From contig DATBLR010000041.1 of assembly GCA_036555275.1 (NCBI GenBank), forward strand, positions 1,711-65,710: a DNA stretch of 64,000 nt, given 5' to 3'. The translations under genes and the position numbers were made by a program. The stretch is from Gemmatimonadales bacterium (GTDB lineage Bacteria > Gemmatimonadota > Gemmatimonadetes > Gemmatimonadales > GWC2-71-9). Positions 20,521-36,956 of the stretch are shown here, piece by piece (within the stretch, counting starts at the first letter, position 1; each line of letters opens with the position of its first letter). The notes beneath the pieces were generated by a model. The model ran no database searches. It had not been told where the DNA came from and worked only from the letters and a program-made list of their open reading frames with translations.

Positions 20521-20524
20521 GGCC

Positions 20525-20566: not shown

Positions 20567-20612
20567 AGACGCAGTATCTTTCAGGTATGCTTCCCTACTT
20601 CGCTGAGGCTGT

Positions 20613-22198: not shown

Positions 22199-22287
22199 TT
22201 CTACATCGCAACCACCGGTTGCTGATGGCGACTCACCTGGAAAGCGCAGTTGCGGCCGCCGTCCCATCCCCAGCGCGGGAGCCTTGT

Positions 22288-22602
22288 GTGTCAGCTGCCA
22301 GTCCCACCCAGCACCGTATCACCCTGCACGGCCGGGTTCTGCATTTCGTGGCCTACGAGGCCGAGCCGGCCGAGCCGCGACGTGGCGAGCCTTCCCGGCC
22401 ACCCATGTGGTACCTGATGAGCGAGGGGAAGCGTCATCCCGTTATGGAGCACCTCGTGGGTCAATCACTTGCGGCTCTCGACAGGACCCTGCGCGAATGG
22501 GCCGAGGCGAATGCCTTCGGGCCAGTCGCTGCCCCCACCATGCGAGCGCAATTCCAACGTCAGACGGCTGACTTGCGGCAGGGCGATTGGTGGGGTGCCT
22601 AA
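22288..22602 (+). CDS. uncharacterised cassette family, paralogue 1 (HFV.YE / MWYLM / WWG motifs)
   Basis: ORF 22219..22602 trimmed to GTG 22288 (GGGAG upstream) by alignment with paralogues 2 and 3. VSAASPTQHRITLHGRVLHFVAYEAEP...PPMWYLMSEGKRHP...WAEANAFGPV...DWWGA. TAA stop lies inside GCCTAAC. Confidence 0.65.
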   Translation: MSAASPTQHRITLHGRVLHFVAYEAEPAEPRRGEPSRPPMWYLMSEGKRHPVMEHLVGQSLAALDRTLREWAEANAFGPVAAPTMRAQFQRQTADLRQGDWWGA

Positions 22603-22723
22603 CCAGCGCATCGACCAGTCGGGGCGCGGCCGTCGATTGTCTCCGCTCAGACACTGCTTGGCCGTTGCGGCATCGGGTTCCCAGACCGCGCAGCGCCCTC
22701 CAAGAGGTGCGCGGCTGTTAGCC
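22597..22723 (+). repeat. integron attC site, family 1
   Basis: GCCTAACCAGCGCATCGACCAGTCGGGGCGCGGCCGTCG ... CAGCGCCCTCCAAGAGGTGCGCGGCTGTTAGCC. 127 bp. Confidence 0.9.
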
Positions 22724-22744
22724 AGCCCGAAAGACGGCCCTGAC

Positions 22745-22978
22745 ATGAACCTCGCCGACATCCGCGGCCTTTTCCCCGGACTGAAGGACACGATTTACCT
22801 GAACACCGCCACCATGGCCGTAGGGTGCGCACCTGCGAGAGAGGCGTACGAGCGTGCGCTGGACCGCTGGTCGGCCGGCCGGTTTGACTGGCTGGAGGCC
22901 GAACGGGCTGGCGAGGACGCCCGAGGCGTGTTCGCGCAGATCGCTGAGGAACACCCGATGCCCCCCCACCCTCGATGA
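22745..22978 (+). pseudogene. class V aminotransferase / cysteine desulfurase-like N-terminal fragment
   Basis: MNLADIRGLFPGLKDTIYLNTATMAVGCAPAREAYERALDRW... Only about 70 family-like codons are present before the sequence diverges and stops. Confidence 0.5.
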
Positions 22979-23493
22979 GATCCGCTACCCCATAGGACGA
23001 CTCCAACTCGACCCAAACCCCACCGAAGCAAAGCGAAGCACTTGGATCACCCGCTCGCCCCCCTGCCTGACCAGCTCCGTGCCGCCGTCGCCGGCCTCAG
23101 TGATCGGCAACTCGATCAGCCGTATCGTGCCGGCGGCTGGTCCCTCCGGCAGATCACACACCACGTGGCGGACGAGCACTTGAACGCGTTCGCCTACTTC
23201 AAGATGGCCCTCACCGAGGTCGAACCGGCCTCAAGAAATACACTGAGCCGCTCTGGGCCGAGACCACCGACGCCCGCCAAGCCCCGCCTGCACTCTCATT
23301 GACCTTGCTGTCCGGCCTCCATGCGCGATGGGTCACTCTTCTTACATCCCTTAGCCCGGCCGACTTCGAGCGCATCTACCTTGACCCCAGCCGTGGCAGG
23401 GTGTCCATTGCCGAGGGAACCCAGCTATACGCCTGGCACGGGCTGCACCATACTGCCCAAATCATGGGTATGCGAAGGCGCGAAGGCTGGTGA
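22975..23493 (+). pseudogene. YfiT/DinB-superfamily metal-dependent hydrolase, two frameshifts
   Basis: Three frames: [18 protein letters not shown] / [52 protein letters not shown] / LLSGLHARWVTLLTSLSPADFERIYLDPSRGRVSIAEGTQLYAWHGLHHTAQI. Confidence 0.7.
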
Positions 23494-23512
23494 ATGAAGT
23501 TGCCCACTTGGG

Positions 23513-23639
23513 TGCTGTCGACCGCATGAAGCTGACACGCCCTCGGCCATAGGTTGTCTCAGGCGAGCCGCAACCAGCCGTAGCCGTGTTCGCTTGCGCG
23601 AGTACACCTCGGGCTGCAGCTTATGCGGGGCCGTTAGGT
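23513..23639 (+). repeat. integron attC site, family 2
   Basis: GCTGTCGACCGCATGAAGCTGACACGCCCTCGGCC ... CTGCAGCTTATGCGGGGCCGTTAGGT. 127 bp. Confidence 0.8.
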
Positions 23640-23671
23640 GGCAACAACCTTCGCCGTGGCCGAGGAGCACG

Positions 23672-23905
23672 ATGTCGCCTGTGGCGCATACCTGTCCCTT
23701 CTGCCACACCGCCATGCACGCGGGCGTCATCATCGACCGCATCTCCGGGTCGAACACGCGACCGATCTGGATCCCAGAACCAGCGCTAGAGTCCTGGTTT
23801 GGTGGCTTGCGCGAGCCCGTGGGCCCCGAGATGTTCGTCAGCACAGACCGGTGCCCCTCCTGTGGCTACCTTGCGTCCTACGCCAACCCCCGCCCCACTC
23901 CCTGA
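23672..23905 (+). CDS. small zinc-ribbon protein
   Basis: ORF 23594..23905 trimmed to ATG 23672 (GAGGAG upstream). 77 aa. CPFC...H and CPSC pairs. Confidence 0.6.
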   Translation: MSPVAHTCPFCHTAMHAGVIIDRISGSNTRPIWIPEPALESWFGGLREPVGPEMFVSTDRCPSCGYLASYANPRPTP

Positions 23906-24227
23906 ACATGGGTGCAGGTAGCACCTAACCAGCGCGCCCCCCTCCATTCGGAGCACACGATGGAGGCCCACCCTAGGATGACTCCTCGAGCTGCCCTCGC
24001 GTTCATCCGTCGCCACGGCGTCGTGCTCGAAGGTAGGCGCGGACCGGTCCCGAACCTCGCAGAGGCCGTGGCGGCGGCACCCATACGCAAGAGCGGATGC
24101 AGTTGGACGCACGGCCCTTCTTCGAGTACTACCCGCGTGACTCGACCTTCGACCCGGCAACCGGGATGTTCACCTGTCAGTTGGGTGTTCCGGTCGGGCC
24201 GATCTAGAGCGCCCCACGCTCGGTGGT

Positions 24228-24318
24228 GACCTGAGCCTGCATGAAGTTGTCAGGATGCGGCCCTCGGCTCTCCAAGGGCCGCACACCCTGCTGCTGGCTA
24301 TGTAGTCCTGCGTCTGAC
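24228..24318 (+). repeat. attC-like site, family 2 (degenerate)
   Basis: GACCTGAGCCTGCATGAAGTTGTCAGGATGCGGCCCTCGG ... GGCTATGTAGTCCTGCGTCTGAC. Confidence 0.4.
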
Positions 24319-24434
24319 AGCTCGGTTCCGGTGTTTTCCAGTTGCCACAGCCGCCGCGTCTGATACTTCCATCGATGAGCGACCGCTAACATTGCCCGCG
24401 TTAGCGATCGATCCCATTCACGATGGAGTACGCG

Positions 24435-25118
24435 ATGAAACCGACGGTCCATGCCCCCTTCCTGAGCGTGATGGCATTGGCAGCGTGCAACAGCATCTAT
24501 TGGCCCAGCAACTCCAGACTCCCGGGCCCCCCCCACTTTCTCGGGGGAGGGCGATAGCACCACCATCGCCGCCAAGGTGGCCGAGTTTCAGGCCGCGCTC
24601 GGCGGCAGCCTGAACGCACCCAACGCGCCGCCTGCGGAGGGCGGCCGCCGTGAGATCAACTGGGACGGGGTCCCCCCCGCTCTGACTGACGTCGACACTT
24701 TCCCGGACGACGAGGTTGGGCCCGCTCTCGGACCTGTTGCGCGTCGTCCGCCGGGCCGGCGCTTTTTCTCGCGGTCGAGGCCGGGTGCAAAGGCCCTGCC
24801 CGTGGTCGCACCGGAGTCTTCCCGCAGCATGTAGTCCTCCGTCCAACAGATCTCTTCCGCCGCCTTCCAGCCGCCAACGGCGCTCCATCTGAGACGCCCA
24901 GCGATGGCCAAGCGCTTCCATTATCTGTGTCAGCGATCGCTCACACTCCGGATGAAGAGGAAGAGCTTTCCGGCTCGCCCCCGGGGATCTTCGGGAGCAG
25001 CGTGGTCCTGATCGGGCCCAGCTACACCTATGCCGTGACATTCAACACTCCAGGAACGTACGCATATGGCTGCGGGGTCCACGGGTCGGCCCTGACCGGA
25101 GTTATCGTGGTCCAGTAG
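24435..25118 (+). pseudogene. lipoprotein with C-terminal cupredoxin-like domain, multiple frameshifts
   Basis: MKPTVHAPFLSVMALAACNS (lipobox), then a stop. It continues in other frames: AEFQAALGGSLNAPNAPPAEGGRREINWDGVPPALTDVDTFPDD and GPSYTYAVTFNTPGTYAYGCGVHGSALTGVIVVQ. Confidence 0.55.
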
Positions 25119-25303
25119 GCGGCGCCAAGTAGCTCGGTCCGACGCTGGCCGAGCATCTGGGCAGCCGGCTCGATGGGGCGGACGGCGAACCTCCTCACGA
25201 ACTGCTGTTCTGATCGCGAGATGGAAGTCAGGCGCGGGCGTATCCCTCAGCCCGTGTCCCGGCTTCATCGGCTATATTGGGAGTGAGCCTCTCCGGAGCC
25301 AGT

Positions 25304-25534
25304 ATGACCAGCCTCTCGTATCACGGCTTCACCATCACGCCGCGCACCTTCCAAGTGCGGGGATCCGGGCGCTGGACCCGGGACGTGCTGATTGGCCGCA
25401 ACCATGCGCTCCGAGCGTTCTGCGATGCGCGGACGTACAGATCAGAAGAAGCCGCCACTGCCGCATGCTGCGAGCTCGCCCGACGTATCATCGACGGAAC
25501 CGCCCCGGGTTTCTCCGTCGTTGACTTGTGCTAA
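25304..25534 (+). CDS. hypothetical small protein, tandem paralogue A
   Basis: ORF 25277..25534 trimmed to ATG 25304. SYHGFTITPRTFQVRGSGRWTRDVLIGR...ARRIIDGTAPGFSVVDL. Confidence 0.6.
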   Translation: MTSLSYHGFTITPRTFQVRGSGRWTRDVLIGRNHALRAFCDARTYRSEEAATAACCELARRIIDGTAPGFSVVDLC

Positions 25535-25563
25535 CCTAGGACCGAGCCTTCCTGGAATCCACC

Positions 25564-25800
25564 ATGCACAGCATCTCCCACCGCGGCTTCCGAATCACGG
25601 CTCGCCCGTACCAGTTGCTGGCGACCGGGCACTGGACCATCGACATCGAGATTTCCCGCAAAGGTCACCTGCGTACCTTCAGCTCCGACGATCGTTACCT
25701 GAACGAACAGGAAGCAATCGCGCAATCATTTGCCTTTGCGCGCCGCATCATCGCCGGAGAGATCTCCGGATGCTCCGTAGCCAGCCTGCACCAGGGCTGA
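25564..25800 (+). CDS. hypothetical small protein, tandem paralogue B
   Basis: ORF 78 aa. SHRGFRITARPYQLLATGHWTIDIEISR...ARRIIAGEISGCSVASL, colinear with 25304..25534. Confidence 0.6.
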   Translation: MHSISHRGFRITARPYQLLATGHWTIDIEISRKGHLRTFSSDDRYLNEQEAIAQSFAFARRIIAGEISGCSVASLHQG

Positions 25801-25929
25801 GGTTCGCTTGGCTCGGCGGGCGCCAGCTCGTCACCGTCCTGCGGGATCTCGGACAACCAGTTAGATTTCCGCATCCGCCAATGGCTCGACAAGGCGGCGC
25901 GTGCATTCTATCCCAGAAAGTAGTGTCCC

Positions 25930-26325
25930 GTGCCCAACGTCCCAGACTTCTCCGACCAGTCCGCTGCGGGCCCGCCCCGGATCGCCATCGCTGATCGTCT
26001 CCGCCAACGTCTGGCCCTCGCTGGCCAGATAGTTGACCGTCGGCGTGGCGCGACGCGCCCACGGAGCCGAATGCCCAAGGAACCACCGGCCGCGGTGCCC
26101 CCTCGTCCAATTCCGGCCGACCCAGCCCTCGCGCGCGAGCGGGCCTGCCTCCGCATGATCTTTCGCGAGTTGGGGGACGCTCACCGGCGCTACCGCCTCC
26201 GGACCCGGATTCCGGGAACGCCCGCCCTTCGGGCGGCGGCGTACGCCTTCAAGCAGGAGCCCAGCGTGCTCTCACTGGTGCCAGTGGCGGCCTTCTTGGA
26301 CGACCTCGGTATCCTGCCCTGGTGA
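25930..26325 (+). CDS. hypothetical protein (start uncertain; ATG 26071 with GGAG is an alternative)
   Basis: ORF 131 aa. GC-rich third positions. TGA stop lies inside GGTGAC of the following short attC. Confidence 0.4.
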   Translation: MPNVPDFSDQSAAGPPRIAIADRLRQRLALAGQIVDRRRGATRPRSRMPKEPPAAVPPRPIPADPALARERACLRMIFRELGDAHRRYRLRTRIPGTPALRAAAYAFKQEPSVLSLVPVAAFLDDLGILPW

Positions 26326-26372
26326 CTGGCGCGGAGCAGGGCCTGTCGCGCTCCCGCAGGTAATCGTCAGGC
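26321..26372 (+). repeat. short attC-like site
   Basis: GGTGACTGGCGCGGAGCAGGGCCTGTCGCGCTCCCGCAGGTAATCGTCAGGC. GCGGAGC and GCTCCCGC are complementary. It ends with GTCAGGC. Confidence 0.5.
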
Positions 26373-26392
26373 GGCTTACTCCCTTCCCGGCC

Positions 26393-26977
26393 ATGGACCG
26401 AGGTCCAACCCACTTCCCCGCGGGCGGCCTTTCGTGCCTGGCTCCGAAGGCACCACAAGACAGCCGATAGCCTGATCCTCCAGATTGCCAAGAATCACGC
26501 GGCATCACTGGGGATCACCTATGCCCAAGCCCTGGACGAAGCCCTGTGCTTTGGCTGGATCGACGGAGTGCGCCGGCGCCTGGACAAGGCAGTTTTTCCA
26601 TCCGCTTCACCCCCAGAAAGCTTCGTAGCATCTGGAGTCGAGTGAACGTTCGCCATGTGGAGCGCCTCATCCAGGAGGGGCGCATGGCCAGGCGGGCCTC
26701 TTTTCAGGCACGGGAGGACAGCCGGACCGGCGTCTACTGCTTCGAGCAGCGTCCGACCCAACTCGGCAAGGCACACTTAGCGGCGTTTCGAGAGAATCGG
26801 CGGGCGTGGGCCTACTTCCAGCAGGAGACCCCCTGGTACCGGCGGACCAGCAGCTTCTGGGTACTGAGTGCCAAGCGCGAGGACACCCAGCGCAAGCGCC
26901 TGGTAATCCTGATCGCATGTTCCGCAAACGGCGAGCGCGTCCCTCCGTTGCGGCGGTCATCGCCCGGCGCCACCTAA
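26393..26977 (+). pseudogene. YdeI/OmpD-associated family protein, frameshifted
   Basis: AAFRAWLRRHHKTADSLILQIAKNH...YAQALDEALCFGWIDGVRRRLDK, then a frame change to SFSIRFTPRKLRSIWSRVNVRHVERLIQEGRM...WVLSAKREDTQRKRL. A further shift lies near the ATG. Confidence 0.65.
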
Positions 26978-27023
26978 CTACCACATGAAGGACAGTGGCG
27001 CGAGGCTTCATGCGATGTACCAC
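26972..27023 (+). repeat. short attC-like site, family 2 arms
   Basis: ACCTAACTACCACATGAAGGACAGTGGCGCGAGGCTTCATGCGATGTACCAC. TAA stop lies in ACCTAAC. Confidence 0.5.
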
Positions 27024-27143
27024 AGGCTCCCCCCCGAGTCGCTCGCCCAGCGTCAGGACCGCCACCCCGCTATCTTAGATACAGACGCCTAGCTCCCTTC
27101 CGGCGTCCCCTCTTGCCGCGGGCTCGCCGCCCCGGGAGCACTC

Positions 27144-27503
27144 ATGGAGACCTCGACCCAAGCTCAGAAACGCGAGCGGGCAACCGCTTTTCCTCCCCCC
27201 AGTGGCGCCGCTCCGACCTGTGGGCTCCTCGACGTACACTGGGACAGCCCGTTTGATCGCCTGTGCTTTCTGGTCTCGGCGCCAGATCTGGCGATCAAGA
27301 ACAACCGCCGATATACCAGGTTGTTGGCCGAGCTCATGACGGGATCCGGGTGTACCGAGGAAGAGGTCTTGGCCCATGGCAACAAGGTCCGCGCCTATCT
27401 CTTCTTCGCCCAGGATCGCCTGAGAAGAGAGGGGCAGCTCGACCGGCTCACTGGCAAGGAGAAGTACTCCTATCAGCTCCCGCCGGTAGCTCCCGCCTTC
27501 TAG
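27144..27503 (+). CDS. hypothetical protein
   Basis: ORF 119 aa with ATG start. No family recognised. Confidence 0.5.
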   Translation: METSTQAQKRERATAFPPPSGAAPTCGLLDVHWDSPFDRLCFLVSAPDLAIKNNRRYTRLLAELMTGSGCTEEEVLAHGNKVRAYLFFAQDRLRREGQLDRLTGKEKYSYQLPPVAPAF

Positions 27504-27585
27504 TGGGCCGAAGGTGCACAGGTGGCGGCGCTCCGGCAGGCCGCCGCCACGGTCTCGCCCTCCAGCTCATCCGCGGGCGTCTGGC
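27497..27585 (+). repeat. attC-like site, family 1 right arm
   Basis: Central perfect stem GGTGGCGGCG/CCGCCGCCAC. Right arm CTCCAGCTCATCCGCGGGCGTCTGGC is nearly identical to the arm ending at 14247. Confidence 0.55.
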
Positions 27586-27621
27586 CGCATCCGCGCGGCT
27601 TAACCGACGTTTCCTTCCAGC

Positions 27622-28272
27622 GTGACCCAGGGCCGACCTCAGTCTCGCCGCGAGGAGCTCGCGAATGTCTTGACCCACGGCTCCGGACTCGCCGCCAGCC
27701 TCGTGGGGCTCCCGCCGCTCGTTTGGGTGGTGAGTGCCCACGGCGACGCCCGGCAGATTGTGGCCTGCTGGGTGTTCGCCACCAGCCTCGTGACCCTCTA
27801 CACCGCCTCAACCATCTACCACGTGCTCCCGACCTCGCCAGCCAAGCAGGTCCTGCGAATCATCGATCACGTGGCGATCTACCTTCTCATTGCCGGGAGC
27901 TACACCCCCTTCACCCTCGGTGTCTTGCGCGGAGCCTGGGGTTATACGCTGTTTGGGCTGATCTGGACCCTAGCCGCCGTCGGGGTCCTCCACAAAACCC
28001 TTCTCGGCTTTCGCTTCCCGCGGGTGTCCACGCTTATGTACCTGGGAATGGGCTGGTTAGCGGTCGTGGCCGTCGCGCCACTCGCCCGGGCCCTCCCGGC
28101 TGGGGGCCTCGCGTGGCTTCTGGCCGGTGGCTTGTGCTACACCGCCGGGGTCGCACTTTTCGTCCGGGACCACCTCCCCTACCGGCACGCCCTTTGGCAT
28201 GTCTTTGTGTTGGCCGGAAGCACCTGTCACTACGCGGCCGTCCTACTGTATGCTACGGGTCCGCTCCCGTGA
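27622..28272 (+). CDS. hemolysin III family (PAQR) membrane protein
   Basis: ORF 216 aa with GTG start. EELANVLTHGSG...STIYH...IIDHVAIYLLIAGSYTPF...HALWHVFVLAGSTCHY. Confidence 0.85.
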   Translation: MTQGRPQSRREELANVLTHGSGLAASLVGLPPLVWVVSAHGDARQIVACWVFATSLVTLYTASTIYHVLPTSPAKQVLRIIDHVAIYLLIAGSYTPFTLGVLRGAWGYTLFGLIWTLAAVGVLHKTLLGFRFPRVSTLMYLGMGWLAVVAVAPLARALPAGGLAWLLAGGLCYTAGVALFVRDHLPYRHALWHVFVLAGSTCHYAAVLLYATGPLP

Positions 28273-28345
28273 CGGACCATTCCTGGAAGCAGCCTGTCCG
28301 TCGCATGGAGCTCGCAGAGAGCGGCTCAGGCGCAAGTCGTTAGAC
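28267..28345 (+). repeat. attC-like site (degenerate)
   Basis: CCGTGACGGACC...GTCCGTC...CAGGCGCAAGTCGTTAGAC. TGA stop lies in the first heptamer. Ends with GTTAGAC. Confidence 0.45.
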
Positions 28346-28488
28346 CCTCCACGACAAGCTGTCTCCGACCCTTCCCTTATAGCCAGCGTGCAGCTGGTTC
28401 CCAGGTTAGCTTTCTCTTGTCGACCTCCGATCCCGCTGCTGGTGCCCAGCACCATCTCCGGTTCGTCTTTCCCCGACCCGGAGCTTTT

Positions 28489-28809
28489 ATGTCCGCCTTC
28501 AAGCCCCAGCAGCGCCATCTTACCATCCGCGGCCGCGCTTTTCATTTCGTTTCATACGAAGGGCGCCCCACTAATCGCCGCCGCGCGCAGCTGCCGTACC
28601 CTGCCATGTGGTACCTCATGGTCGAGGGCCGCCGGTGCCCAGTGCTCCCGTGCGATACCACCTTGTCCCTGCCTCAGCTGGATGCTGCCTTGAGCGCCTG
28701 GGCTGAGGACAATGCCCTGGGCCCCGTAGAGTCGACACCAGTCGCGCCGACCATCAGCCGGGCCGCTGGCAACAACCCCCGCTACGAGAACTGGTGGGGG
28801 CCTAACTAG
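28489..28809 (+). CDS. uncharacterised cassette family, paralogue 2
   Basis: ORF 28417..28809 trimmed to ATG 28489 (GGAG upstream). MSAFKPQQRHLTIRGRAFHFVSYEGRP...PAMWYLMVEGRRCP...WAEDNALGPVE...NWWGPN. The last two codons are the GCCTAAC heptamer. Confidence 0.7.
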   Translation: MSAFKPQQRHLTIRGRAFHFVSYEGRPTNRRRAQLPYPAMWYLMVEGRRCPVLPCDTTLSLPQLDAALSAWAEDNALGPVESTPVAPTISRAAGNNPRYENWWGPN

Positions 28810-28926
28810 CGCATGGACTAGTCGGGGCGCGGCCGCCGGTTGTCTCGGCTCTGGCACGCCTAGCCGCCCTCGATCTATGGTTCCTGGACGTGCCCGCGCC
28901 CCGCAGGAGATGCGCGGGCGTTCAAC
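28800..28926 (+). repeat. integron attC site, family 1
   Basis: GCCTAACTAGCGCATGGACTAGTCGGGGCGCGGCCGCCGG ... CGCCCCGCAGGAGATGCGCGGGCGTTCAAC. 127 bp. Confidence 0.9.
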
Positions 28927-28958
28927 GGCCTCCCACGGCCCTTGCCTCGACCCACTCT

Positions 28959-29558
28959 GTGGCCAGCCCGCTCGATTCCTTCATCCCGACCTGTGATGCC
29001 CGAGAGCGCTTTCAGCTCCGGGTCCGGGCCCCAGCTGCCTTGCTGTATCAGACGGCCGCCGAGTTCGATTTCCAATCCTTGTCCCTCGTCCGGGCCATCT
29101 TCTGGCTCCGGACTCGTCTTCTCGGCTCCAAGCCCGGTCCGCCAACCGCACCCTCGCAAGGGTTTCTCGCTGGGGCACCAAGCCTCGGATGGGGTGTCCT
29201 TCGGGAGGAACCAGGACGCCTCTTCATCGCCGGAGCCCACTGCCAGCCCTGGCTCCCCGACGTGGTCTTCCACCCGCTCACCGCGGTCAGCTTCGGCCCC
29301 TTCGCCGCGCCAAGCCAGGTCAAGATCGCGTGGACCCTCGAGGTCGAGCCACTGGATGAATCCCACTCTACCCTCGCGACAGAAACCCGGGCTGCGGCCA
29401 CCGACGCGGAGGCCCGCCGACTTTTCCGGTCCTACTGGCGCTGGGCCCGGTTTGGGGTCCATTCCATCCGCTGGCTCCTCCTTCCAGCGATCCGGCGCCA
29501 GGCGCAGGAACGCTACCACTCGACGCATCCCGCACCCACAAACCCAGATGGCACCTGA
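28959..29558 (+). CDS. SRPBCC-like hypothetical protein
   Basis: ORF 28890..29558 trimmed to GTG 28959 (start uncertain). RERFQLRVRAPAALLY...LATETRAAATDAEARRLFRSYWRW. Confidence 0.5.
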   Translation: MASPLDSFIPTCDARERFQLRVRAPAALLYQTAAEFDFQSLSLVRAIFWLRTRLLGSKPGPPTAPSQGFLAGAPSLGWGVLREEPGRLFIAGAHCQPWLPDVVFHPLTAVSFGPFAAPSQVKIAWTLEVEPLDESHSTLATETRAAATDAEARRLFRSYWRWARFGVHSIRWLLLPAIRRQAQERYHSTHPAPTNPDGT

Positions 29559-29564
29559 TCGGTC

Positions 29565-29641
29565 GCCTAACTACCGCAGGACGCCACCCGCGGGCTTGCC
29601 CTGCCGCCCTGCGGTCGGCAGCTTATGCGCGGCCGCAAAAG
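29565..29641 (+). repeat. integron attC site, family 2 (short)
   Basis: GCCTAACTACCGCAGGACGCC...CGGCAGCTTATGCGCGGCCGCAAAAG. Confidence 0.65.
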
Positions 29642-29663
29642 CGCATTCCCCTGCGAGGCTCGC

Positions 29664-30098
29664 ATGCCGACTTCCCAGAACTGGGCCGCCTGGGCCCTGC
29701 TCTCCGCTGCCTTCGCGGCACTGACGGCCATCTTCGCGAAGGTCGGCCTCGAGGGCATCGATTCCGACTACGCCACTCTCGTGCGCACCGGCATCATCCT
29801 GGTCGTGCTTGCCGTCCTCGTCGCAATGCTTGGGAAATGGAGGGACCCCACTACCCTCCCGGGGCGCTCGCTGACCTTCCTGACCCTCTCCGGGTTGGCC
29901 ACCGGAGCCTCATGGCTGTGCTACTTTCGCGCCCTCAAGGTCGGCGACGCAACGAGGGTCGCTCCCATCGACAAGTTCAGCGTTGTCCTGGTAGCCATCT
30001 TCGCCACGGTGTTCCTCGGCGAACGCCCGAGCCTCCGGGACTGGTCCGGCGTTGCCTTGGTGAGCGCCGGGGTTCTTCTGCTCAGCATCCGAAAGTAG
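29664..30098 (+). CDS. EamA-family (single-domain DMT) transporter
   Basis: ORF 29625..30098 trimmed to ATG 29664. 144 aa with four or five hydrophobic helices. ATGASWLCYFRALKVGDATRVAPIDKFSVV. Confidence 0.75.
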   Translation: MPTSQNWAAWALLSAAFAALTAIFAKVGLEGIDSDYATLVRTGIILVVLAVLVAMLGKWRDPTTLPGRSLTFLTLSGLATGASWLCYFRALKVGDATRVAPIDKFSVVLVAIFATVFLGERPSLRDWSGVALVSAGVLLLSIRK

Positions 30099-30341
30099 CT
30101 CCGGCCCTGTCGCCATTCGGGGGCTTTGACAAACTCCGCTACGGAACCGATTCTCCTGGCGGTCGGGCTCTTTCTGGGCTTCAAAGCCTATTCACCGGCC
30201 ACCGGTTCCAAGCATGATGGCGACTGACGGCTCCCGGTCGGCAGGGGCGCTGTGCCGTGCCCATCGCGCGCAGCGTCGGAAGCTGATGCAGAGGCCCCGG
30301 CAATCGCCACGCTCCATAGCTATGCCACCAGGAAAACGACC

Positions 30342-30479
30342 ATGACCGCCAGGACCGTCCGGGCCGTCGCCATCGGCATTCTGGTCACCGTCGCTGTCAC
30401 GACCCTCGTCGACATCGTTTGCCCCACAGGTCATCGCTGCTTGCCTGCCGCCGCCGCAGCCAGTGGCACGGCCAGCTAA
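30342..30479 (+). CDS. possible 45-aa membrane peptide
   Basis: ATG 30342 within ORF 30252..30479. MTARTVRAVAIGILVTVAVTTLVDIV. Followed by hairpin 30483-30508. Confidence 0.25.
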   Translation: MTARTVRAVAIGILVTVAVTTLVDIVCPTGHRCLPAAAAASGTAS

Positions 30480-30529
30480 GTTACACGGGAATCTCAGAGA
30501 TCCCGTGTGTCCCAACCCGGGTAGTTCCG

Positions 30530-30778
30530 ATGCCCAAGCGCCTCCAAGTCTACCAAACCCCGGAGATTACGGTCACCTTCGATCCCAATCTCTGCATCCA
30601 CTCAGGCAACTGCGTCCGGGGGCTCCCCGAGGTGTTCGACGTCCGCCGCAAACGCTGGGTTCGGCCGGAGCTTGCTTCGCCTGATGCCGTGGCCGCTCAG
30701 GTGGCCCACTGTCCCTCGGGTGCCCTTCAGTTTCACCGGCCCGCACAGCCAAACCCGCCGGCCAGTGCCAGCCAATGA
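30530..30778 (+). CDS. divergent 4Fe-4S mono-cluster (Fer4_19-type) protein
   Basis: ORF 30419..30778 trimmed to ATG 30530. ITVTFDPNLCIHSGNCVRGLPEVFD...WVRPE...CPSGAL. Confidence 0.7.
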   Translation: MPKRLQVYQTPEITVTFDPNLCIHSGNCVRGLPEVFDVRRKRWVRPELASPDAVAAQVAHCPSGALQFHRPAQPNPPASASQ

Positions 30779-30891
30779 CCGCATGAATCCATCACGGCGT
30801 GGCGATCGGTGAACTGGAGGCAGCCATGACCCGGAGCGGCCAGGCCCGGCGCACCAGCCGCCGCCATGCAGCTTCCGCGGGGACGTTAGGC
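30774..30891 (+). repeat. integron attC site, family 2
   Basis: AATGACCGCATGAATCCATCACGGCGTGGCGATCGG ... CATGCAGCTTCCGCGGGGACGTTAGGC. TGA stop lies in the left end. Confidence 0.75.
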
Positions 30892-30906
30892 ATCATAGGA
30901 GCCGCG

Positions 30907-31236
30907 ATGCGAATCACGGACATCCCGTTTCAGACTACCGATTGGGCCACCGTCGCTCCCACGGAGCATCCGGGCGCGGTGGGCACTGCCCTCTGGCGCA
31001 CCAAGAGCCACGGCCACCTCCGACTCCGGGTGGTGGACTACTCTCCGGGCTACCAGGCCGATCACTGGTGCGAGAAGGGGCATATTCTGCTCTGCCTGGA
31101 GGGCGAACTCCACACCCAGCTCCAGGACGATCGCGTCGTCGTCCTGCGGCCGGGCATGAGCTACGAGGTCGCCGATGGAGCGCAGCCCCACCGCTCCTCA
31201 ACTCCGACCGGGGCCAAGTTGTTCATTGTCGACTAG
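30907..31236 (+). CDS. cupin domain protein
   Basis: ORF 30799..31236 trimmed to ATG 30907. YSPGYQADHWCEKGHILLCLEGEL...GMSYEV. Confidence 0.7.
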   Translation: MRITDIPFQTTDWATVAPTEHPGAVGTALWRTKSHGHLRLRVVDYSPGYQADHWCEKGHILLCLEGELHTQLQDDRVVVLRPGMSYEVADGAQPHRSSTPTGAKLFIVD

Positions 31237-31247
31237 TAGCCTGCGGC

Positions 31248-31281
31248 CTGCCCCCCGACCCCTGACAAGCGACGGGGGCAG
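31248..31281. terminator. hairpin between convergent genes
   Basis: CTGCCCCC (31248-31255) and GGGGGCAG (31274-31281). 8-bp GC stem between the cupin gene (+) and the cysteine-synthase-like gene (-). Confidence 0.4.
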
Positions 31282-31304
31282 CCGTGGGCGATCGCCAGCA
31301 GTTC

Positions 31305-32228
31305 CTATCTCCTCATATACACATCGGTGCCCAGGTACTTCAGGCCAGAGTCGACCATCAGTGTGACCACCTTGGCAGCCGGCCCCAGCCGCTCTGCTAC
31401 CTGAATCGCGGCGATGACGTTTGCTCCGGAGGACGTCCCTGCGAAGAGGGCCTCCTCCCGCGCGAGGCGCCTGGCCATCTTCTTCGCGTCATCTGTCTTG
31501 ACCGGCAGGATGTCGTCCACGAGAGTCGGGTCCCAGAGTGGAGGAGTGTAGCCAATCCCGACACCTTCAATCTTGTGGGGCCCTGGCTGACCCCCCCGCA
31601 ACACCGCAGATTCGGCAGGTTCGACAACGACGATCTTGATACCCGGTTTGTATCGCTTCAGCACGGTGGCGACCCCGCGCGACGAAGCCGCCGTACCCAC
31701 ACAGTGAACGAACGCGTCGATCTCTCCGTTCGTTTGGCTCCAGATCTCCTCGCCCAGAGAGTAGTAGCCCGCGATGCTGTCATGGTTCTTGAGCTGGTCG
31801 GTCCAGTACGTGTGAGGCTCCAAGCTCAACACGCGGGCGGCCTCAATCATGTCCAGGATCAGTTTCTTGGTGGTAAGGCCTCCTTCACTCCGGACCAGCG
31901 TCAGTTCCGCACCCAGCGCCGCAATTTGATCCAGCTTTTCCCGGCTGAACGCATCAGAGCTGACGATCCGCAGGCGGTAGCCTCTGGCGGCACAGACCAA
32001 GGCGAGCGATGCCCCCGTGCTGCCCCCGGTGTACTCGACAACGGTGTCTCCGGGCTTCAGTCGACCATCCTCCTCCGCCCGGGAAATCACCGCCTGCGCC
32101 ATCCGGTCCTTGACACTGCCGGTTGGGTTCTCCCACTCGAGCTTGACGAAGATGTCGGCACAATTGGCCGGCACGACCTTGTGAAGGCGAACCATGGATG
32201 TGTTGCCAATGGCGTCGAGAATGTCCAT
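31305..32228 (-). CDS. PLP-dependent cysteine synthase family protein
   Basis: ORF 307 aa. LEWENPTGSVKDRMA, GGSTGASLA, GTSSGANV motifs. Reverse orientation in the array. Confidence 0.85.
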   Translation of the reverse strand: MDILDAIGNTSMVRLHKVVPANCADIFVKLEWENPTGSVKDRMAQAVISRAEEDGRLKPGDTVVEYTGGSTGASLALVCAARGYRLRIVSSDAFSREKLDQIAALGAELTLVRSEGGLTTKKLILDMIEAARVLSLEPHTYWTDQLKNHDSIAGYYSLGEEIWSQTNGEIDAFVHCVGTAASSRGVATVLKRYKPGIKIVVVEPAESAVLRGGQPGPHKIEGVGIGYTPPLWDPTLVDDILPVKTDDAKKMARRLAREEALFAGTSSGANVIAAIQVAERLGPAAKVVTLMVDSGLKYLGTDVYMRR

Positions 32229-32469
32229 GAGTCCGCTCTCCCTCTGCTGATTGTCAATCCTCGGACAGGCACGGCACTCCTGCGGTCTACCAATGATGCC
32301 AGAGCAAGGCCCGCTCGACTGAGCCCGCAGCCCATCGCGGCAGTGACCAGAGGCACGCTCCCTGTCCAGGATGGCTTGTCGCCGCTCACCCCGGCCTGCA
32401 GCTTATACAGGATCGCTGCGCAGACAAGTCGAGCGGCAATCAGTCATTGAGCCTCCAGGACCACAGGCC

Positions 32470-32937
32470 ATGGTAGCGAAACCGCGGACCATCGACGAGT
32501 ACCTTGCGCGCCTAAGCACGGAGAAGCGGGATGCGCTGGAGAGACTTCGCAGGGCCATCAGGTCTGCGGCGCCCGCTGCCGAAGAGTGCATCAGCTACCG
32601 GGTCCCCGCCTTCTTCCTTGGTGGAAAGATCCTCGTAGCCTTTGCTGCGGCCACGAACCACTGCGCCTTCTACGCCGGTGCTCACCCCGTGCAAGCTCAT
32701 AAGGACCAACTCAAGGCCTACGACACCAGCAAGGGCACCATCCGCTTTGAAGCAGACAGCCCCTTACCGGCCACCCTGGTCCGGAAGCTGGTAAAGACGC
32801 GGATCGCGGAACGCGCCGCCCGACCTTCACGTCACACACCGCGAACCCGCGGCCGATCTGCGGGTGAGCGGCGGCGTCGCCCCGCCCGCCGCAACACCAC
32901 CCCGCGTGCACATGCAGGCCACCGAGGAAAGCGCTGA
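32470..32937 (+). CDS. DUF1801 (YdhG-like) domain protein
   Basis: ORF 32371..32937 trimmed to ATG 32470. IDEYLARLSTEKRDALERLRRAIRSAAPAAEECISYRVPAF...KGTIRF. Arg-rich C-terminal extension. Confidence 0.7.
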   Translation: MVAKPRTIDEYLARLSTEKRDALERLRRAIRSAAPAAEECISYRVPAFFLGGKILVAFAAATNHCAFYAGAHPVQAHKDQLKAYDTSKGTIRFEADSPLPATLVRKLVKTRIAERAARPSRHTPRTRGRSAGERRRRPARRNTTPRAHAGHRGKR

Positions 32938-33016
32938 CCCGTCGGTCCAGCGCGCACTCGCGCCGATGGCAGCGGACCGGCTCGACGCCGCCACGGCATT
33001 CTCGCGCGCGCTTTGC

Positions 33017-33460
33017 TCAGTTCAGCCCTGCGACCACCCGCTCCAGGCCGCTGATGAACCGCTGCCAGCCGTAGCTAGCCCCCTGGTAGTTTTGCTCTTC
33101 TTCGGGCCGGAAGCCCGACTGCTCCATGCGCACGAGAACGCCGCTCCTGGTCGGCCTGAGCGTCCAGGTAACGACCGTCTTCAGTCCCCCCGCCGCCGCC
33201 TCTCCCGACGCGTTCCAGCTGTACGAGAGCCGTCTATGGGGTTCGACGACCAGGACCTGGCAGTCGGTTACCCCGTTCCAATGCGGCATGGGCGGGGCGC
33301 GGAACGTGAACCGGTGGCCAACGACCGGCTGGAAGTCGTTCTTCATCAGCCATTGCTCAATCAGCGGAGTTTGGGTGAGGGCGCGCCAGACCTTTTCCGG
33401 CGGATGCGGCAGCTCCCGTTCGATCACGAGGGAACGCGTGGCGGCGGTGTGTTGGGTCAT
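33017..33460 (-). CDS. SRPBCC family protein (AHSA1/Aha1-like)
   Basis: ORF 147 aa. IERELPHPPEKVWRALTQTPLIEQW...TWTLRPTRSGVLVRMEQSGF. ATGA overlap with the upstream arsR-type gene. Confidence 0.8.
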   Translation of the reverse strand: MTQHTAATRSLVIERELPHPPEKVWRALTQTPLIEQWLMKNDFQPVVGHRFTFRAPPMPHWNGVTDCQVLVVEPHRRLSYSWNASGEAAAGGLKTVVTWTLRPTRSGVLVRMEQSGFRPEEEQNYQGASYGWQRFISGLERVVAGLN

Positions 33461-33780
33461 GGGCCCATCCTGTTGAGCAGGGTTTCGAGGCGATCGAAGT
33501 GGTCGCGCCAGAAGGCGGCGTAGTGGCCCATCCAGTCGATCAGGGGCGCCAGGGCTTGTGGCCGGGCGCTGTAGTGGGTCTGGCGTCCCTCGCGCCGGCG
33601 GCGCACCAGGCCAGCGTGCCTCAGAACGCCCAGGTGCTTGGAAACCGCTGGTTGGGAGACGCCGGCCCGGTCAGTGAGGGCCCGCACGGTCTGTTCGCCG
33701 TCTCGGCTCAACCGCTCGAAGATCGCCCGACGGGTCGGATCGGCCAGGGTGCTGAAAAGCACGTTCGCCGTTGTGGCCAT
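33457..33780 (-). CDS. ArsR/SmtB family transcriptional regulator
   Basis: ORF 107 aa. FSTLADPTRRAIFERLSRDGEQTVRALTDRAGVSQPAVSKHLGVLRHAGLV. Confidence 0.9.
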   Translation of the reverse strand: MATTANVLFSTLADPTRRAIFERLSRDGEQTVRALTDRAGVSQPAVSKHLGVLRHAGLVRRRREGRQTHYSARPQALAPLIDWMGHYAAFWRDHFDRLETLLNRMGP

Positions 33781-33790
33781 GGGACAATCA

Positions 33791-33806
33791 ATAACCCCGG
33801 GGTTAT
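33791..33806. promoter_or_regulatory. perfect 16-bp palindrome, ArsR operator candidate
   Basis: ATAACCCCGGGGTTAT, 11 nt upstream of the arsR-type start. Confidence 0.55.
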
Positions 33807-33979
33807 GAATCTGTCAAGCCGTCGGCCCTGTGCGAGCGCGGTCCCTCGCCGGCCTCCACCCTGCGGCCATCGGTTGGTTCCACCCTGGCACCGCCAGGTA
33901 TCCCCGCGTACAGTTCTTGAAACCGCCGCGGGCCGCAGGGGATTTGCGGTCGTCAGCGAGCCCTTGCCCCCGGTTCCTC

Positions 33980-34771
33980 ATGCCTCGAGCTGACCTTCGC
34001 ATCACCTACATTGACGGCCCGACCGCGATTCTCGAGGTCGCGGGCCTGCGGTTCCTCACCGATCCGACCTTTGACCCCGCCGGTACGGCCTACCCCACCG
34101 CGGCCTACACCCTGCGCAAGACCCGGTCTCCGGCCATGGGCCCCCAGGCAGTCGGCGATCTTGCCGGCGTCCTCCTGAGCCACGATCATCACTTCGATAA
34201 CCTCGATCATCTCGGCCGAGCCCTCCTCGCCCAGGTGCCCGCGATCTACACCACCGTGGCTGGAGCCGAACGGCTCGGCAGGAACGCGATTGGACTGGCC
34301 CCCTGGCAGTCGGTGACCTGCGCGACCCCCGACGGCCGCGCCCTGCGAATTACCGCCACCCCGGCGCGCCACGGCCCCGCGGGCGGGGATCGGGGACCCG
34401 TGGTGGGCTTCGTCCTTGAGCCGGCGGCCGGCGCGGGCGCACCGGTCTACGTCTCCGGCGATACGGGGTGGTACGACGAGGTCGCTGAAGTCGGCCGCCG
34501 CGTTCCGGTCGCCGTCGCGCTCCTCAACCTTGGGGCCGCGAAGGTGGCGGTCGCCGGGCCGGCCCCGTTGACCTTCACCGCAGCGGAGGCCGTTGCGCTC
34601 GCTGACGCGTGGCCTCAAGCGCGCATCGTGCCGCTGCATTTTGAAGGATGGGAGCACTTCACGGAGGGCCGCAGGGAGGTCGACGCGGCCTTCCGCGCCG
34701 CGGGGCTCAGCGATCGGCTCCACTGGCTGGAGCCCGGGGTGCCGACCACCTTCCCCCAGCCCGCAGCCTAG
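33980..34771 (+). CDS. MBL-fold metallo-hydrolase
   Basis: ORF 33830..34771 trimmed to ATG 33980. LLSHDHHFDNLD metal motif. TAG stop lies in GCCTAGG. Confidence 0.8.
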   Translation: MPRADLRITYIDGPTAILEVAGLRFLTDPTFDPAGTAYPTAAYTLRKTRSPAMGPQAVGDLAGVLLSHDHHFDNLDHLGRALLAQVPAIYTTVAGAERLGRNAIGLAPWQSVTCATPDGRALRITATPARHGPAGGDRGPVVGFVLEPAAGAGAPVYVSGDTGWYDEVAEVGRRVPVAVALLNLGAAKVAVAGPAPLTFTAAEAVALADAWPQARIVPLHFEGWEHFTEGRREVDAAFRAAGLSDRLHWLEPGVPTTFPQPAA

Positions 34772-34881
34772 GCCCCGAGCGGCCGCCGGGAGCCGCATGA
34801 ATCCGCCAGGACGCGGCCATCGGCTTGTAAGGGGCCGGGCTCATTGCCTTGCATGTGGGCATCCACGGTGAGACGTTGACC
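34766..34881 (+). repeat. attC-like site, family 2 left half
   Basis: GCCTAGG...AGCCGCATGAATCCGCCAGGACGCGGCCATCGG parallels the left halves at 30774 and 12202. Right end is CTTGCATGTGGGC...GAGACGTTGACC. Confidence 0.5.
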
Positions 34882-35132
34882 GCCTCGAGCCTCGGCTGGT
34901 TCACCGAGGCGGGAGCCAGGAGCAAGTTCCGTGGTACCCCGGGCCCGGAGACCCTCGCGTGGCTGGCCTCGACGCGCCTGGCGGGTCGACTGCGTCGCTA
35001 CGTGACTCGACAGGCTGGTGCGGCACGGGTCGAGGGTCGCTCCGTGCTCCCTGGCGCCGTCGCATTCACCCGGACCGGGGGGACCCTGCGGCACCGGGCG
35101 CGCGCCCAGCACGCGTATGTTGTCGCGGAGCA

Positions 35133-35223
35133 CCCTGACTAGCGCCTGGAAGAGTCCCACGCGCTGAGCCTGCAGGCATCGCCTCCCAGATGCGGAGCTG
35201 GCCTGAAGGTGCGTGAGTTGACG
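35133..35223 (+). repeat. attC-like site
   Basis: CCCTGACTAGCGCCTGGAAGAG ... GAAGGTGCGTGAGTTGACG. It closes a roughly 340-bp unit (34882-35223) whose only ORF (34849..35142) is unconvincing. Confidence 0.5.
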
Positions 35224-35283
35224 TTCTCATTGGGCTTGCGCTCGCGACACCTGCAGTCGCTGGGCGGCAGCACGGGGGCTCAC

Positions 35284-35808
35284 ATGAAAGCATCCGTCTT
35301 CGTTGGCACCAGCCTCGACGGGTTCATCGCTCGATCCAACGGGGACCTCGACTGGCTCCCGCCTGGCGGAGGCGAAGAGCACGGCTACGAGACTTTCATG
35401 GCCAGCGTCGACGCACTGGTCATCGGCCGCAAGACCTTCGAGACTGTCCTGGCCTTCGACACCTGGCCGTATGGCCCGAAGCCCGTCTTTGTGCTCAGCA
35501 CTCGCGAACTGGCCCCTGCGCCTCCCGGAGCCGTCGTGGAGCGCATGGCAGGGCCCCCGCCCGAAATCGTCGCCCAGTTGTCTGCTCGCGGCATCCGCCA
35601 CATTTACGTGGATGGCGGCCTCACCATTCAGCGCTTTCTCCAGGCGGGACTCATTCAGCGCATCATTATCACGCGGGTTCCGGTGCTCATCGGTACCGGG
35701 ATCCCGCTCTTCGGCGCGACCGGGGGTGATATCCCCTTAAGGCACATCGCCACTCGGCAGTACGCCTCCGGACTGGTTCAAAGCGAATACCAAGTCGACA
35801 CCGGGTAG
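35284..35808 (+). CDS. dihydrofolate reductase family protein (RibD C-terminal domain), second copy
   Basis: ORF 35209..35808 trimmed to ATG 35284. VFVGTSLDGFIARSNGDLDWL...ALVIGRKTFE...VFVLS...IYVDGGLTIQRFL. Confidence 0.85.
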   Translation: MKASVFVGTSLDGFIARSNGDLDWLPPGGGEEHGYETFMASVDALVIGRKTFETVLAFDTWPYGPKPVFVLSTRELAPAPPGAVVERMAGPPPEIVAQLSARGIRHIYVDGGLTIQRFLQAGLIQRIIITRVPVLIGTGIPLFGATGGDIPLRHIATRQYASGLVQSEYQVDTG

Positions 35809-36014
35809 TTCAGATGGCACCCTGCGGCTGTTGTACCTGGGCCCCCGCGCCGCGGACGTCAACGCCGCCGGCCTGACTTGGAGACCCTTGCCTAGCCTTC
35901 ATCCGTGGCTGCCGATGCCAGCGGCAACGCGGCGAGCGGAAACCGATTATGTTTCCAGAGGTACAGAAGTTCTCAGCCCTCCCCACGTCCTCGACCGCCG
36001 AACCCAGGAGTTCC

Positions 36015-36170
36015 GTGCCCAAGCGTAACTATGGCTTTGAAAAGCGGCAGAAAGAGCTGGCCAAGATCCAGAAGCGCCAGCTGAAGCAGGAGCGGCGCGC
36101 GGACCGCGCCGCGTCACGGTCGGACCAGGCACCCGAGCCACCCCCACCACCGGCCCCCGAGCCAGAGTGA
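36015..36170 (+). CDS. small basic protein, 51 aa
   Basis: GTG 36015 with AGGAG upstream, inside ORF 35949..36170. VPKRNYGFEKRQKELAKIQKRQLKQERRADR, then a Pro-rich tail. Confidence 0.5.
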   Translation: MPKRNYGFEKRQKELAKIQKRQLKQERRADRAASRSDQAPEPPPPPAPEPE

Positions 36171-36233
36171 GCAGCCCCGTTGCCGGGGATCCTTCGGCCA
36201 ACGCTATCGCCGGCGACCCATCATCTCGGGCCG

Positions 36234-36269
36234 TTCGGGCCGTGACTTCGATTCGGGCCGTGACTTCGA
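36234..36269 (+). repeat. perfect 18-bp tandem duplication
   Basis: TTCGGGCCGTGACTTCGA occurs twice in tandem. Confidence 0.85.
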
Positions 36270-36335
36270 TCCTGCCCCACGGTCGGCCTGGCCCCCACGC
36301 CATCTGCGGCACGGCTCCCTCGGACCGGAGCCTCC

Positions 36336-36653
36336 ATGTCCGCGTTTAAACCCCAGCAGCGCCATCTCACGATCCACGGGCGCGTGTATCACTTCGTCTC
36401 TTACGAGGGCGAGCCGGCCAACAAGCACCATGACCAGCCGGCACGCCCCGCCATGTGGTACCTGATGGCCGAGGGACGGCGATACCCGGCAGTCCCCTCC
36501 GACCCAACGCAGAGCGAGCCAGAGGTTGATCGCGCTCTGGCGCGCTGGGCCGTGGCCAACACACAGGGCCCGGTTGAGCCACCGCCGCGCCCCGCAGCCG
36601 CGAAAGATCACCCCCCAGCCAAGCGACCGAGGAACTGGTGGGGGCCTAACTAG
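36336..36653 (+). CDS. uncharacterised cassette family, paralogue 3
   Basis: ORF 105 aa with GGAG upstream. MSAFKPQQRHLTIHGRVYHFVSYEGEP...PAMWYLMAEGRRYP...WAVANTQGPVE...NWWGPN. It ends in the GCCTAAC-TAG junction. Confidence 0.7.
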   Translation: MSAFKPQQRHLTIHGRVYHFVSYEGEPANKHHDQPARPAMWYLMAEGRRYPAVPSDPTQSEPEVDRALARWAVANTQGPVEPPPRPAAAKDHPPAKRPRNWWGPN

Positions 36654-36762
36654 CGCGTGCACCAGTCGGGGCGCGCCCGTCACATGTGGGCCGCCGCACC
36701 TTGCCGTGTGAGCGGAATCCGGCAGGCAGACCGCTCGGCCCCGGAGGATCGCATGACCCACG
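36644..36762 (+). repeat. integron attC site, family 1 (right arm degenerate)
   Basis: GCCTAACTAGCGCGTGCACCAGTCGGGGCGCGCCCGTC ... CCGGAGGATCGCATGACCCAC. Confidence 0.6.
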
Positions 36763-36956
36763 GCAAGTCGCATATCGCCCTCCTGCTGCTCCTGCCGGCC
36801 CTTTTCGTCCCACCACGCGCCGACGCTCAGTGGGCCACGCTCGTGACGGCCGGTTACGCCACGGAAGTGCACAATGGCGACTACGCCTCCTGAAGTGCCT
36901 TCTCGCTCCGCTCGCTGCGCGAAGCGCGGCCGCTCGCCACGAAGCACGGGCTCCCG

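Follow-up and report, generated by a model that had tools for sequence, protein, structure and literature searches.

Three short genes in a 64,000-nucleotide (nt) stretch of Gemmatimonadales DNA (contig DATBLR010000041.1; the whole stretch is called the window below) encode predicted small cytoplasmic proteins that belong to a real small-protein family, which is nearly restricted to Gemmatimonadota. An original prediction, made from the letters of the window, had described these genes (copies 1 to 3) as paralogues of an unrecognised cassette protein family. We found no match to this family among annotated families or among solved and viral-predicted structures; it evolves under purifying selection and is not cassette-specific, since several subfamilies stand in fixed chromosomal synteny. 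Two elements ahead of the genes are new in this analysis, namely a GGTTAKMTTT motif at a distance of ~85 nt and a conserved leader with two hairpins, in which CUCCGG is predicted to pair with the ribosome-binding site.

The three genes are located on the + strand. Copy 1 lies at 22288..22602 (GTG start, 104 amino acids (aa), C-terminal DWWGA), copy 2 at 28489..28809 (ATG start, 106 aa, C-terminal NWWGPN), and copy 3 at 36336..36653 (ATG start, 105 aa, C-terminal NWWGPN). They are colinear open reading frames (ORFs) with the coordinates and translations given in the original prediction, which had also correctly reported a GGAG-type ribosome-binding site ahead of each copy; it is positioned 5–7 nt 5′ of the start codon in all three. 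The three-way alignment contains 37 invariant columns, and these reproduce the motif string proposed earlier. Among each other, the copies share 42–58% protein identity. Because their DNA identity is 52–62% and their synonymous sites are saturated (proportion of synonymous differences, pS, 0.69–0.77), they are old, diverged paralogues and not recent duplicates, just as had been suggested. In the 80-aa core, the proportion of nonsynonymous differences (pN) is 0.22–0.35 and the ratio of nonsynonymous to synonymous substitution rates (dN/dS, omega) is ≤0.25, and copy 1 compared to its orthologue from locus L004 (77% identity, dS 0.67) yields an omega of 0.22. The family profile retrieves the three copies at E 1e-50 to 1e-55, and their likeness far exceeds chance. 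The heptamer GCCTAAC, which had been noticed as the terminal Pro-Asn codons of two copies, indeed constitutes these codons in copies 2 and 3 (GGG CCT AAC TAG), and in copy 1 it overlaps an Ala codon and the TAA stop. Each copy is overlain by long antisense ORFs, which a G+C content of 66%, approximately that of the window, leads one to expect. A Cys pair (C50/C55) was considered as a metal site and dropped, as copy 1 has His/His and copy 3 Tyr/Ser at these positions.

Beyond the window, a profile of the three copies matched 220 protein clusters (90% identity) at E ≤1e-3, all of them ~100–109 aa in length, annotated as “hypothetical” and without a Pfam domain. An exhaustive HMMER search with a 93-sequence profile over 1.84 billion representatives yielded 105 clusters at 50% identity, whereby the matched proteins were all short and the alignments covered profile positions 1 to ~80; in the few longer homologues that were examined for fused domains, no known domain was found. 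Scanning one genome per species resulted in 194 family loci (designated by L numbers), 80 of which were kept and used for the taxonomy count. Gemmatimonadota, in the form of metagenome-assembled genomes, accounted for 79 of these 80 loci, and the exception is a 3-kb contig. Several genomes hold at least two family copies. Plasmid and phage collections contained no family homologue. Close orthologue pairs with unsaturated dS gave omega values of ~0–0.3, which, like the values for the core of the window copies, bears out the selection that had been assumed for the family; values of 0.4–0.8 for distant pairs are a saturation artefact and were set aside. The dN/dS check that had been proposed together with the original prediction therefore ended with a ratio well below 1 and with abundant homologues elsewhere.

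In order to place the family, we compared it with collections of known families and structures. Pfam returned 0 matches even at E ≤10, NCBIfam only a 14-bit match to RNase Y that is far under the cut-off, and PADLOC and PHROGs no significant match, and the best match among the PDB sequences had an E-value of 0.067. For the full-length protein, AlphaFold2 modelled the core with confidence and the tail as disordered, the predicted local distance difference test (pLDDT) score being <50 for residues 79–106. A core-only model, for which the family was aligned together with its sister family (see below), reached a pLDDT of 84.4 and a predicted template modelling (pTM) score of 0.72. It comprises strands at residues 8–13, 16–23, 40–45, and 48–54 and a helix at residues 61–75, so that the predicted core of ~80 aa consists of two beta-hairpins and then one helix. 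Foldseek searches with the core model gave a best E-value of 1.1 against PDB (template modelling (TM) score ≤0.41) and of 0.1 against BFVD (TM score ≤0.47), the latter matches all being uncharacterised phage proteins. Thus, the profile searches and the structure prediction that had been recommended revealed no homology to a known domain family, and the description of the family as unrecognised holds for Pfam, NCBIfam, PHROGs, PADLOC, and the PDB sequence and fold searches alike.

Within the 93 sequences, residues Q8, R16, H19, F20, V21, W41, M44, G47, R49, and W71 of the core are invariant or near-invariant, and W102 and W103 at the tip, which follows a variable tail, are at least 90% conserved. 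Many subfamilies show the same arrangement of a poorly conserved, predicted-disordered linker of ~25 aa and then a short, conserved aromatic tip of the NWWGPN, WWGA(S), or ELWEE type. The tail type depends on the subfamily (NWWGPN, WWGA(S), ELWEE, or GGSEE directly before the stop codon), and members of 79–90 aa are tail-less. Since all four Pro codons occur ahead of the terminal Asn across the family, and since the L013 protein has the C-terminus NWWGPS while its attC site begins only 120 nt past the stop codon, the NWWGP tip is held by a constraint on the protein level and not by the attC.

The designation as a cassette protein family proved to be too narrow, because many members are located in conserved non-cassette chromosomal contexts. 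In loci L073, L078, L083, and L084, the order is fixed and consists of a DUF4230 gene, a gene for an 84-aa protein, a family member of 88–89 aa, and MgtC. The 84-aa protein (at about 5580–5910 in these loci; sequence MKQVDFEYRGKQI…PPMWYVTIGGTALTKLP…) has no Pfam match and represents a sister family of 65–100% identity, which is unannotated and found in Gemmatimonadales. With hhalign, the 84-aa protein scored 90.5% against the family as a single sequence and 95.6% (E 1.3e-8) in the profile–profile comparison. The alignment of the two families is colinear, W41, G47, and W71 being invariant in each, and the family thus has a distant paralogue in the 84-aa protein. Other subfamilies have their own neighbours: a ferritin-like gene is found 92 nt upstream of NWWGAS-type members, HlyIII is the fixed neighbour after PAEVSQ-type members, and genes for CspA-type cold-shock proteins occur 87–219 nt from the family gene in four unrelated loci (L015, L041, L043, and L047). 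The csp genes are themselves preceded by long, conserved 5′ regions (…CTATCGTGAGGG…). The neighbours of the NWWGPN-type copies are variable, as expected of cassettes, and outside the window the copies in L013 and L045 also stand in attC arrays.

The cassette character of the window copies was analyzed on the basis of the attC sites. An attC-like repeat of ~130 nt recurs on the + strand of the window from 8969 to ~40367. From 9 repeats of this array an attC covariance model with 23 base pairs, including R″/R′, was built, which recognised 9 strong sites and several weaker ones in the window and no convincing site on its opposite strand; the attC stems covary across the array. Full-length attC sites, both of them training sites of the model, follow copy 1 (22595..22725, + strand, 112 bits; R″ GCCTAAC over the Ala codon and stop, R′ GTTAGCC) and copy 2 (28798..28928, + strand, 116 bits; R″ GCCTAAC as the Pro-Asn codons, R′ GTTCAAC), and for the copy 2 site both arms pair in the DNA fold. 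The earlier claim of a family-1 attC after each copy is thus right for copies 1 and 2, but behind copy 3 there remains just the 5′ half of a site (36642..36722, + strand, 81 nt, 22 bits, E 0.004), which has kept R″ and the 5′ arm and in which the 3′ arm, R′, and any arm pairing in the fold are absent. By the ORF-plus-attC criterion of an integron gene cassette, copies 1 and 2 are cassettes and copy 3 is not; copy 3 is a decayed or fused cassette. Ahead of copies 1 and 2, the attCs are either degenerate or carry internal deletions. A stretch of only ~35 nt between an HlyIII-family gene and copy 2 (28376..28410, + strand, TAGCCAGCGTGCAGCTGGTTCCCAGGTTAGC) is probably an internally deleted attC remnant, as comparison with the intact attCs suggests. 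Neither a tyrosine-recombinase domain nor an integron integrase was detected in the 18 scanned ORFs out of 35 window ORFs of at least 250 aa, and the ORFs left of the first attC have no tyrosine-recombinase domain either. Because no recombinase domain was present in the scanned ORFs, the array is an integrase-less attC cluster within the window; an integrase may lie outside. Several paralogues in one array are not unusual for chromosomal cassette arrays, such as those of Vibrio. Hence, the three copies in one array, which the original prediction had taken as a signal, are not unusual per se, although the family to which they pointed is real and unrecognised. An ad hoc attC finder based on R″/R′ complementarity and DNA folding missed the known attCs of the window, and its negatives were discarded.

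Further features of the array and its surroundings were recorded. The left flank carries housekeeping genes (purL-like, amidotransferase, pyruvate phosphate dikinase) and a GNAT gene (7612–8295). An IS110-family transposase ORF (18801–19874, minus strand, Pfam Transposase_20) is flanked by a weak attC (18264–18394, 41 bits) and a partial attC (20523–20568, 20 bits), and the region 18264–20568 looks like an insertion sequence in or beside an attC site. The array contains cargo that is unusually large for cassettes, with a 526-aa Ser/Thr protein kinase ORF (12408–13988) and a Mut7-C RNase-domain ORF (15072–15896). Two small paralogous ORFs adjoin each other at 25277–25534 (85 aa) and 25564–25800 (78 aa), one of which has a sub-threshold DUF6566 match. 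No tRNA was found in a search of the window. Just 5′ of copy 2, there are an unannotated 119-aa ORF (27144–27503, cluster c16) and the HlyIII-family gene (27622–28272), and c16 homologues recur beside family genes in L004/L005, L007, and L008. A Lys/Arg-rich 73-aa ORF (35949–36170; …PKRNYGFEKRQKELAKIQKRQLKQ…) is situated 166 nt upstream of copy 3; its homologue in L020 (5764–5994; …PKKPNYRFDKRRRELDKKQKK…) stops 6 nt ahead of the family gene. The Lys/Arg-rich ORF and the family gene may form a two-gene unit in loci without the GGTTA motif.

This motif was identified in the regions upstream of the family genes. It occurs as GTTATCTTT at 22192..22200 (+ strand), ~88 nt upstream of copy 1, where it resembles a −10 element of the type TAnnnT, and as GTTAGCTTT at 28405..28413 (+ strand), ~84 nt upstream of copy 2; no GGTTA motif is present upstream of copy 3. 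Across the family, GGTTATCTTT, GTTAGATT, or a close variant precedes almost every member, cassette-borne or not. The strict form GKTAKMTTT is found 3 times in the 64-kb window compared to 0.33 expected occurrences, and two of the three are those ahead of copies 1 and 2. In ~750 kb of loci, most of the 27 GKTAKMTTT matches are located 79–94 nt before a family start codon. The motif fits a TAnnnT −10 hexamer and is therefore a candidate promoter. An assignment as attC R′ box was rejected because in L013 the motif sits 107 nt inside the cassette. Likewise rejected was a general Bacteroidetes-type −7 box (TAnnTTTG), as the strict motif is missing upstream of the csp, ferritin-like, c5, c16, and sister genes; one ferritin-like gene has a classical TTGACT-N17-TAATAG promoter instead, and a literature search on the motif as a −7-type signal found nothing. 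The third window motif, GTTAGATTT at 25860, is positioned ahead of a 131-aa ORF (25930–26325, no Pfam match), homologues of which (cluster c5) occur at distances of no more than a few kb from family genes in L007, L015, L041, L043, L045, and L082.

Between the motif and the start codon, the leaders of NWWGPN- and WWGAS-type members have two predicted hairpins in common, P1 (TGGYGC with GCRCCA) and P2 (CUCCGG with the CCGGAG Shine-Dalgarno sequence). A leader covariance model was built from 10 seed leaders and used to search 810 kb on both strands. It gave 21 matches at E <0.1, all of which are on the coding strand and immediately precede a family gene. Some 11 of these matches were absent from the seed, including window copy 2, L003, L009, L018, L024, L037, L044, and the second L015 copy. 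The leader element is thus conserved and highly specific to the family genes. In the window, the copy 2 leader is located at 28436..28483 (+ strand; P1 TGGTGC/GCACCA, P2 CTCCGG/CCGGAG Shine-Dalgarno; 39 bits, E 7e-4, not in the seed), and its minimum-free-energy fold has a z-score of −2.9. The copy 3 leader at 36279..36330 (+ strand; 50 bits as a seed sequence) has the same architecture, with CTGCGG as anti-Shine-Dalgarno sequence and thus one mismatch. A perfect 18-nt tandem duplication (TTCGGGCCGTGACTTCGA twice, at 36234–36269) is found just 5′ of the copy 3 leader. P1 contains 3 pairs with compensatory changes, and its covariation is above that of all 500 shuffles, in an alignment that was fitted to the covariance model, which favours the structure. 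In the short PAEVSQ-type leaders, the Shine-Dalgarno sequence would be sequestered by another partner (GUGCUCC with GGAGCAY). RNAalifold on MAFFT leader alignments had missed the Shine-Dalgarno helix via a one-column misalignment, and the covariance model recovered it. A sigma-54 reading of the TGGCGC...GC block was dropped, as the spacing varies. Rfam showed no relevant match at E ≤1 over 22000–37000.

Taken as a whole, these data are best explained by captured, self-contained, and translationally gated genes of this family that encode a non-enzymatic binding or adaptor protein, an explanation that we consider probable with clear reservations. The cassette copies would then be members of a native, lineage-specific family that the array has captured. 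Each gene would form its own expression unit, made up of a −10-like element ~85 nt upstream and a two-hairpin leader of ~75 nt, in which the P2 pairing of CUCCGG with CCGGAG would hold translation off until the hairpin opens. The folded core might bind a protein or nucleic acid ligand, and the Trp-Trp tip at the C-terminus might dock onto a conserved host partner, as in the tethered adaptors SspB or SSB. The neighbouring genes for cold-shock proteins, a ferritin-like protein, and MgtC give a hint of a role in the stress response.

Several points weigh against this explanation. The capture is inferred to have proceeded from the core genome to the cassette, and the reverse direction is possible. 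Outside the window, the attC model finds this attC type in L013 and weakly in L045, whereby it fits the attC type of the window genome and says little on the cassette status of most other loci. The sigma-70 scan revealed no two-hexamer promoter, and csp, ferritin-like, and other genes lack the strict motif in their upstream regions. P2 pairs in 99% of cases, yet with 5 of the 6 base pairs invariant it provides no evidence of covariation. Full pairing of the Shine-Dalgarno sequence is predicted for 30 of 43 family leaders compared to 77 of 281 control leaders, whereby the 43 leaders are mutually related and do not count as independent observations. Leaders of another kind are found in copy 1 and several subfamilies. 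Finally, it is from the architecture alone that the protein most likely appears to be a non-enzymatic binding or adaptor module.

In a more far-reaching version, which seems rather unlikely, the family would be a small binding domain with a new structure, and its synthesis would be controlled by a Shine-Dalgarno-occluding leader of a new class. Such a leader might sense temperature, a metabolite, or RNA chaperones, for which the neighbouring cold-shock proteins would be an example; if this version were true, Gemmatimonadota arrays would stockpile autonomously expressed stress modules and not silent, promoterless cargo. About equally doubtful is a nucleic-acid binder of the PUR/Whirly type, whose beta-beta-beta-beta-alpha unit would dimerise into a PUR-like domain and bind single-stranded DNA or RNA, e.g., folded attC strands or its own leader in the sense of an autoregulation. 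Four strands and then a helix within ~75 aa correspond to the order of a PUR repeat, residues K5, R16, H19, and R49 are conserved and basic, the leader is structured and conserved, and cold-shock protein genes adjoin family genes in several loci. Repeat III of Pur-alpha (5fgo_D) even appears in both Foldseek lists; however, this match is not significant (E 1.9–2.8, TM score 0.28–0.37, root-mean-square deviation ~7 Å), and the core carries only a slight positive net charge, with the sister family being acidic.

It could also be that the copies are orphan antitoxin-like or addiction cassettes, which would serve to stabilise the array. Each would then encode, from a promoter of its own, a small protein whose N-terminal domain is folded and whose disordered C-terminal tail neutralises a partner. 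When cassettes of chromosomal integrons carry a promoter, as in the Vibrio arrays, they are typically toxin-antitoxin systems, and the likely own promoter, the several copies per array, and the disordered tail with its conserved Trp tip would be in line with this. We nevertheless regard this possibility as quite improbable, since the cassettes of ~0.5 kb harbor a single ORF, no partner gene is conserved beside the NWWGPN-type copies as would be the case for a type II toxin-antitoxin system, no toxin, antitoxin, or defence model matches, and many members are part of a stable core-genome synteny beside MgtC, the ferritin-like gene, and others. Close to refuted is the idea that there is no functional protein at all and that the pattern reflects either a constraint at the DNA level, through attC-linked sequence, a repeat, or a gene on the antisense strand, or the drift of relaxed paralogues within a silent array. 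The antisense ORFs across all three copies, which the base composition predicts anyway, and the overlap of the last codons with the attC R″ box in the window would fit such a scenario. This is opposed by omega values of 0–0.3 in unsaturated orthologue pairs, by the use of four Pro codons before the terminal Asn and the NWWGP kept in L013 with its attC 120 nt off, and by the constant length over 194 loci and the confident AlphaFold model.

The family genes are of interest in several respects. Most integron cassettes encode proteins of unknown function, and this family is a tractable example with a compact domain and a clear taxonomic home in Gemmatimonadota, an abundant but poorly studied soil phylum. 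As cassette-borne and core-genome members exist together, the origin of cassette genes can be asked here. The leader presents a testable candidate for a new cis-regulatory RNA, and if the motif is a promoter, the cassettes would be expressed whatever their distance from the integron promoter, which bears on the debate about silent arrays. The family merits a Pfam or DUF entry. It is truly unrecognised, yet finds of this kind are ordinary in cassette arrays; the added value is a confident model without structural neighbour, the link between core genome and cassettes, and the candidate regulatory leader.

Among known systems, the copies can be compared with the paralogous unknown-function cassettes of sedentary chromosomal integrons and of clusters of attC sites lacking integron integrases (CALINs), with which they share a single short ORF, an array-type attC, diverged paralogues, and an unannotated product. 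In contrast to such cassettes, the family also has chromosomal synteny groups and a core-genome sister family, as well as its own upstream motif and structured leader; moreover, only two of the three copies have an intact attC, and the window ORFs that were scanned contain no intI. The promoter-bearing toxin-antitoxin cassettes are likewise small, probably carry their own promoter, and occur in multiple copies, but the family consists of a single gene without a partner and without similarity to known toxin-antitoxin families. On the protein level, PUR-alpha/Whirly repeats have the same order and size of secondary structure elements and conserved basic residues; yet this is a likeness in topology only of a predicted model, with no significant structural match (Foldseek E ~2, TM score ≤0.37) and no sequence similarity. 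The family resembles the tethered adaptors SspB and SSB in that its conserved core is joined, through a variable linker of low model confidence, to a conserved tip (WWG or LWEE), but it is not homologous to them, and its short subfamilies and the sister family do without the tail. The leader, finally, with its predicted pairing of a conserved upstream anti-Shine-Dalgarno sequence and the ribosome-binding site in a hairpin just before the start codon, is comparable to Shine-Dalgarno-sequestering elements such as the ROSE and fourU thermometers or the platforms of translational riboswitches. It displays no evident ligand-binding aptamer, no Rfam match, and no covariation of the Shine-Dalgarno helix, and while thermometer stems are weak and mismatched, the stem of the family leader is a perfect, G+C-rich helix of 6 bp.

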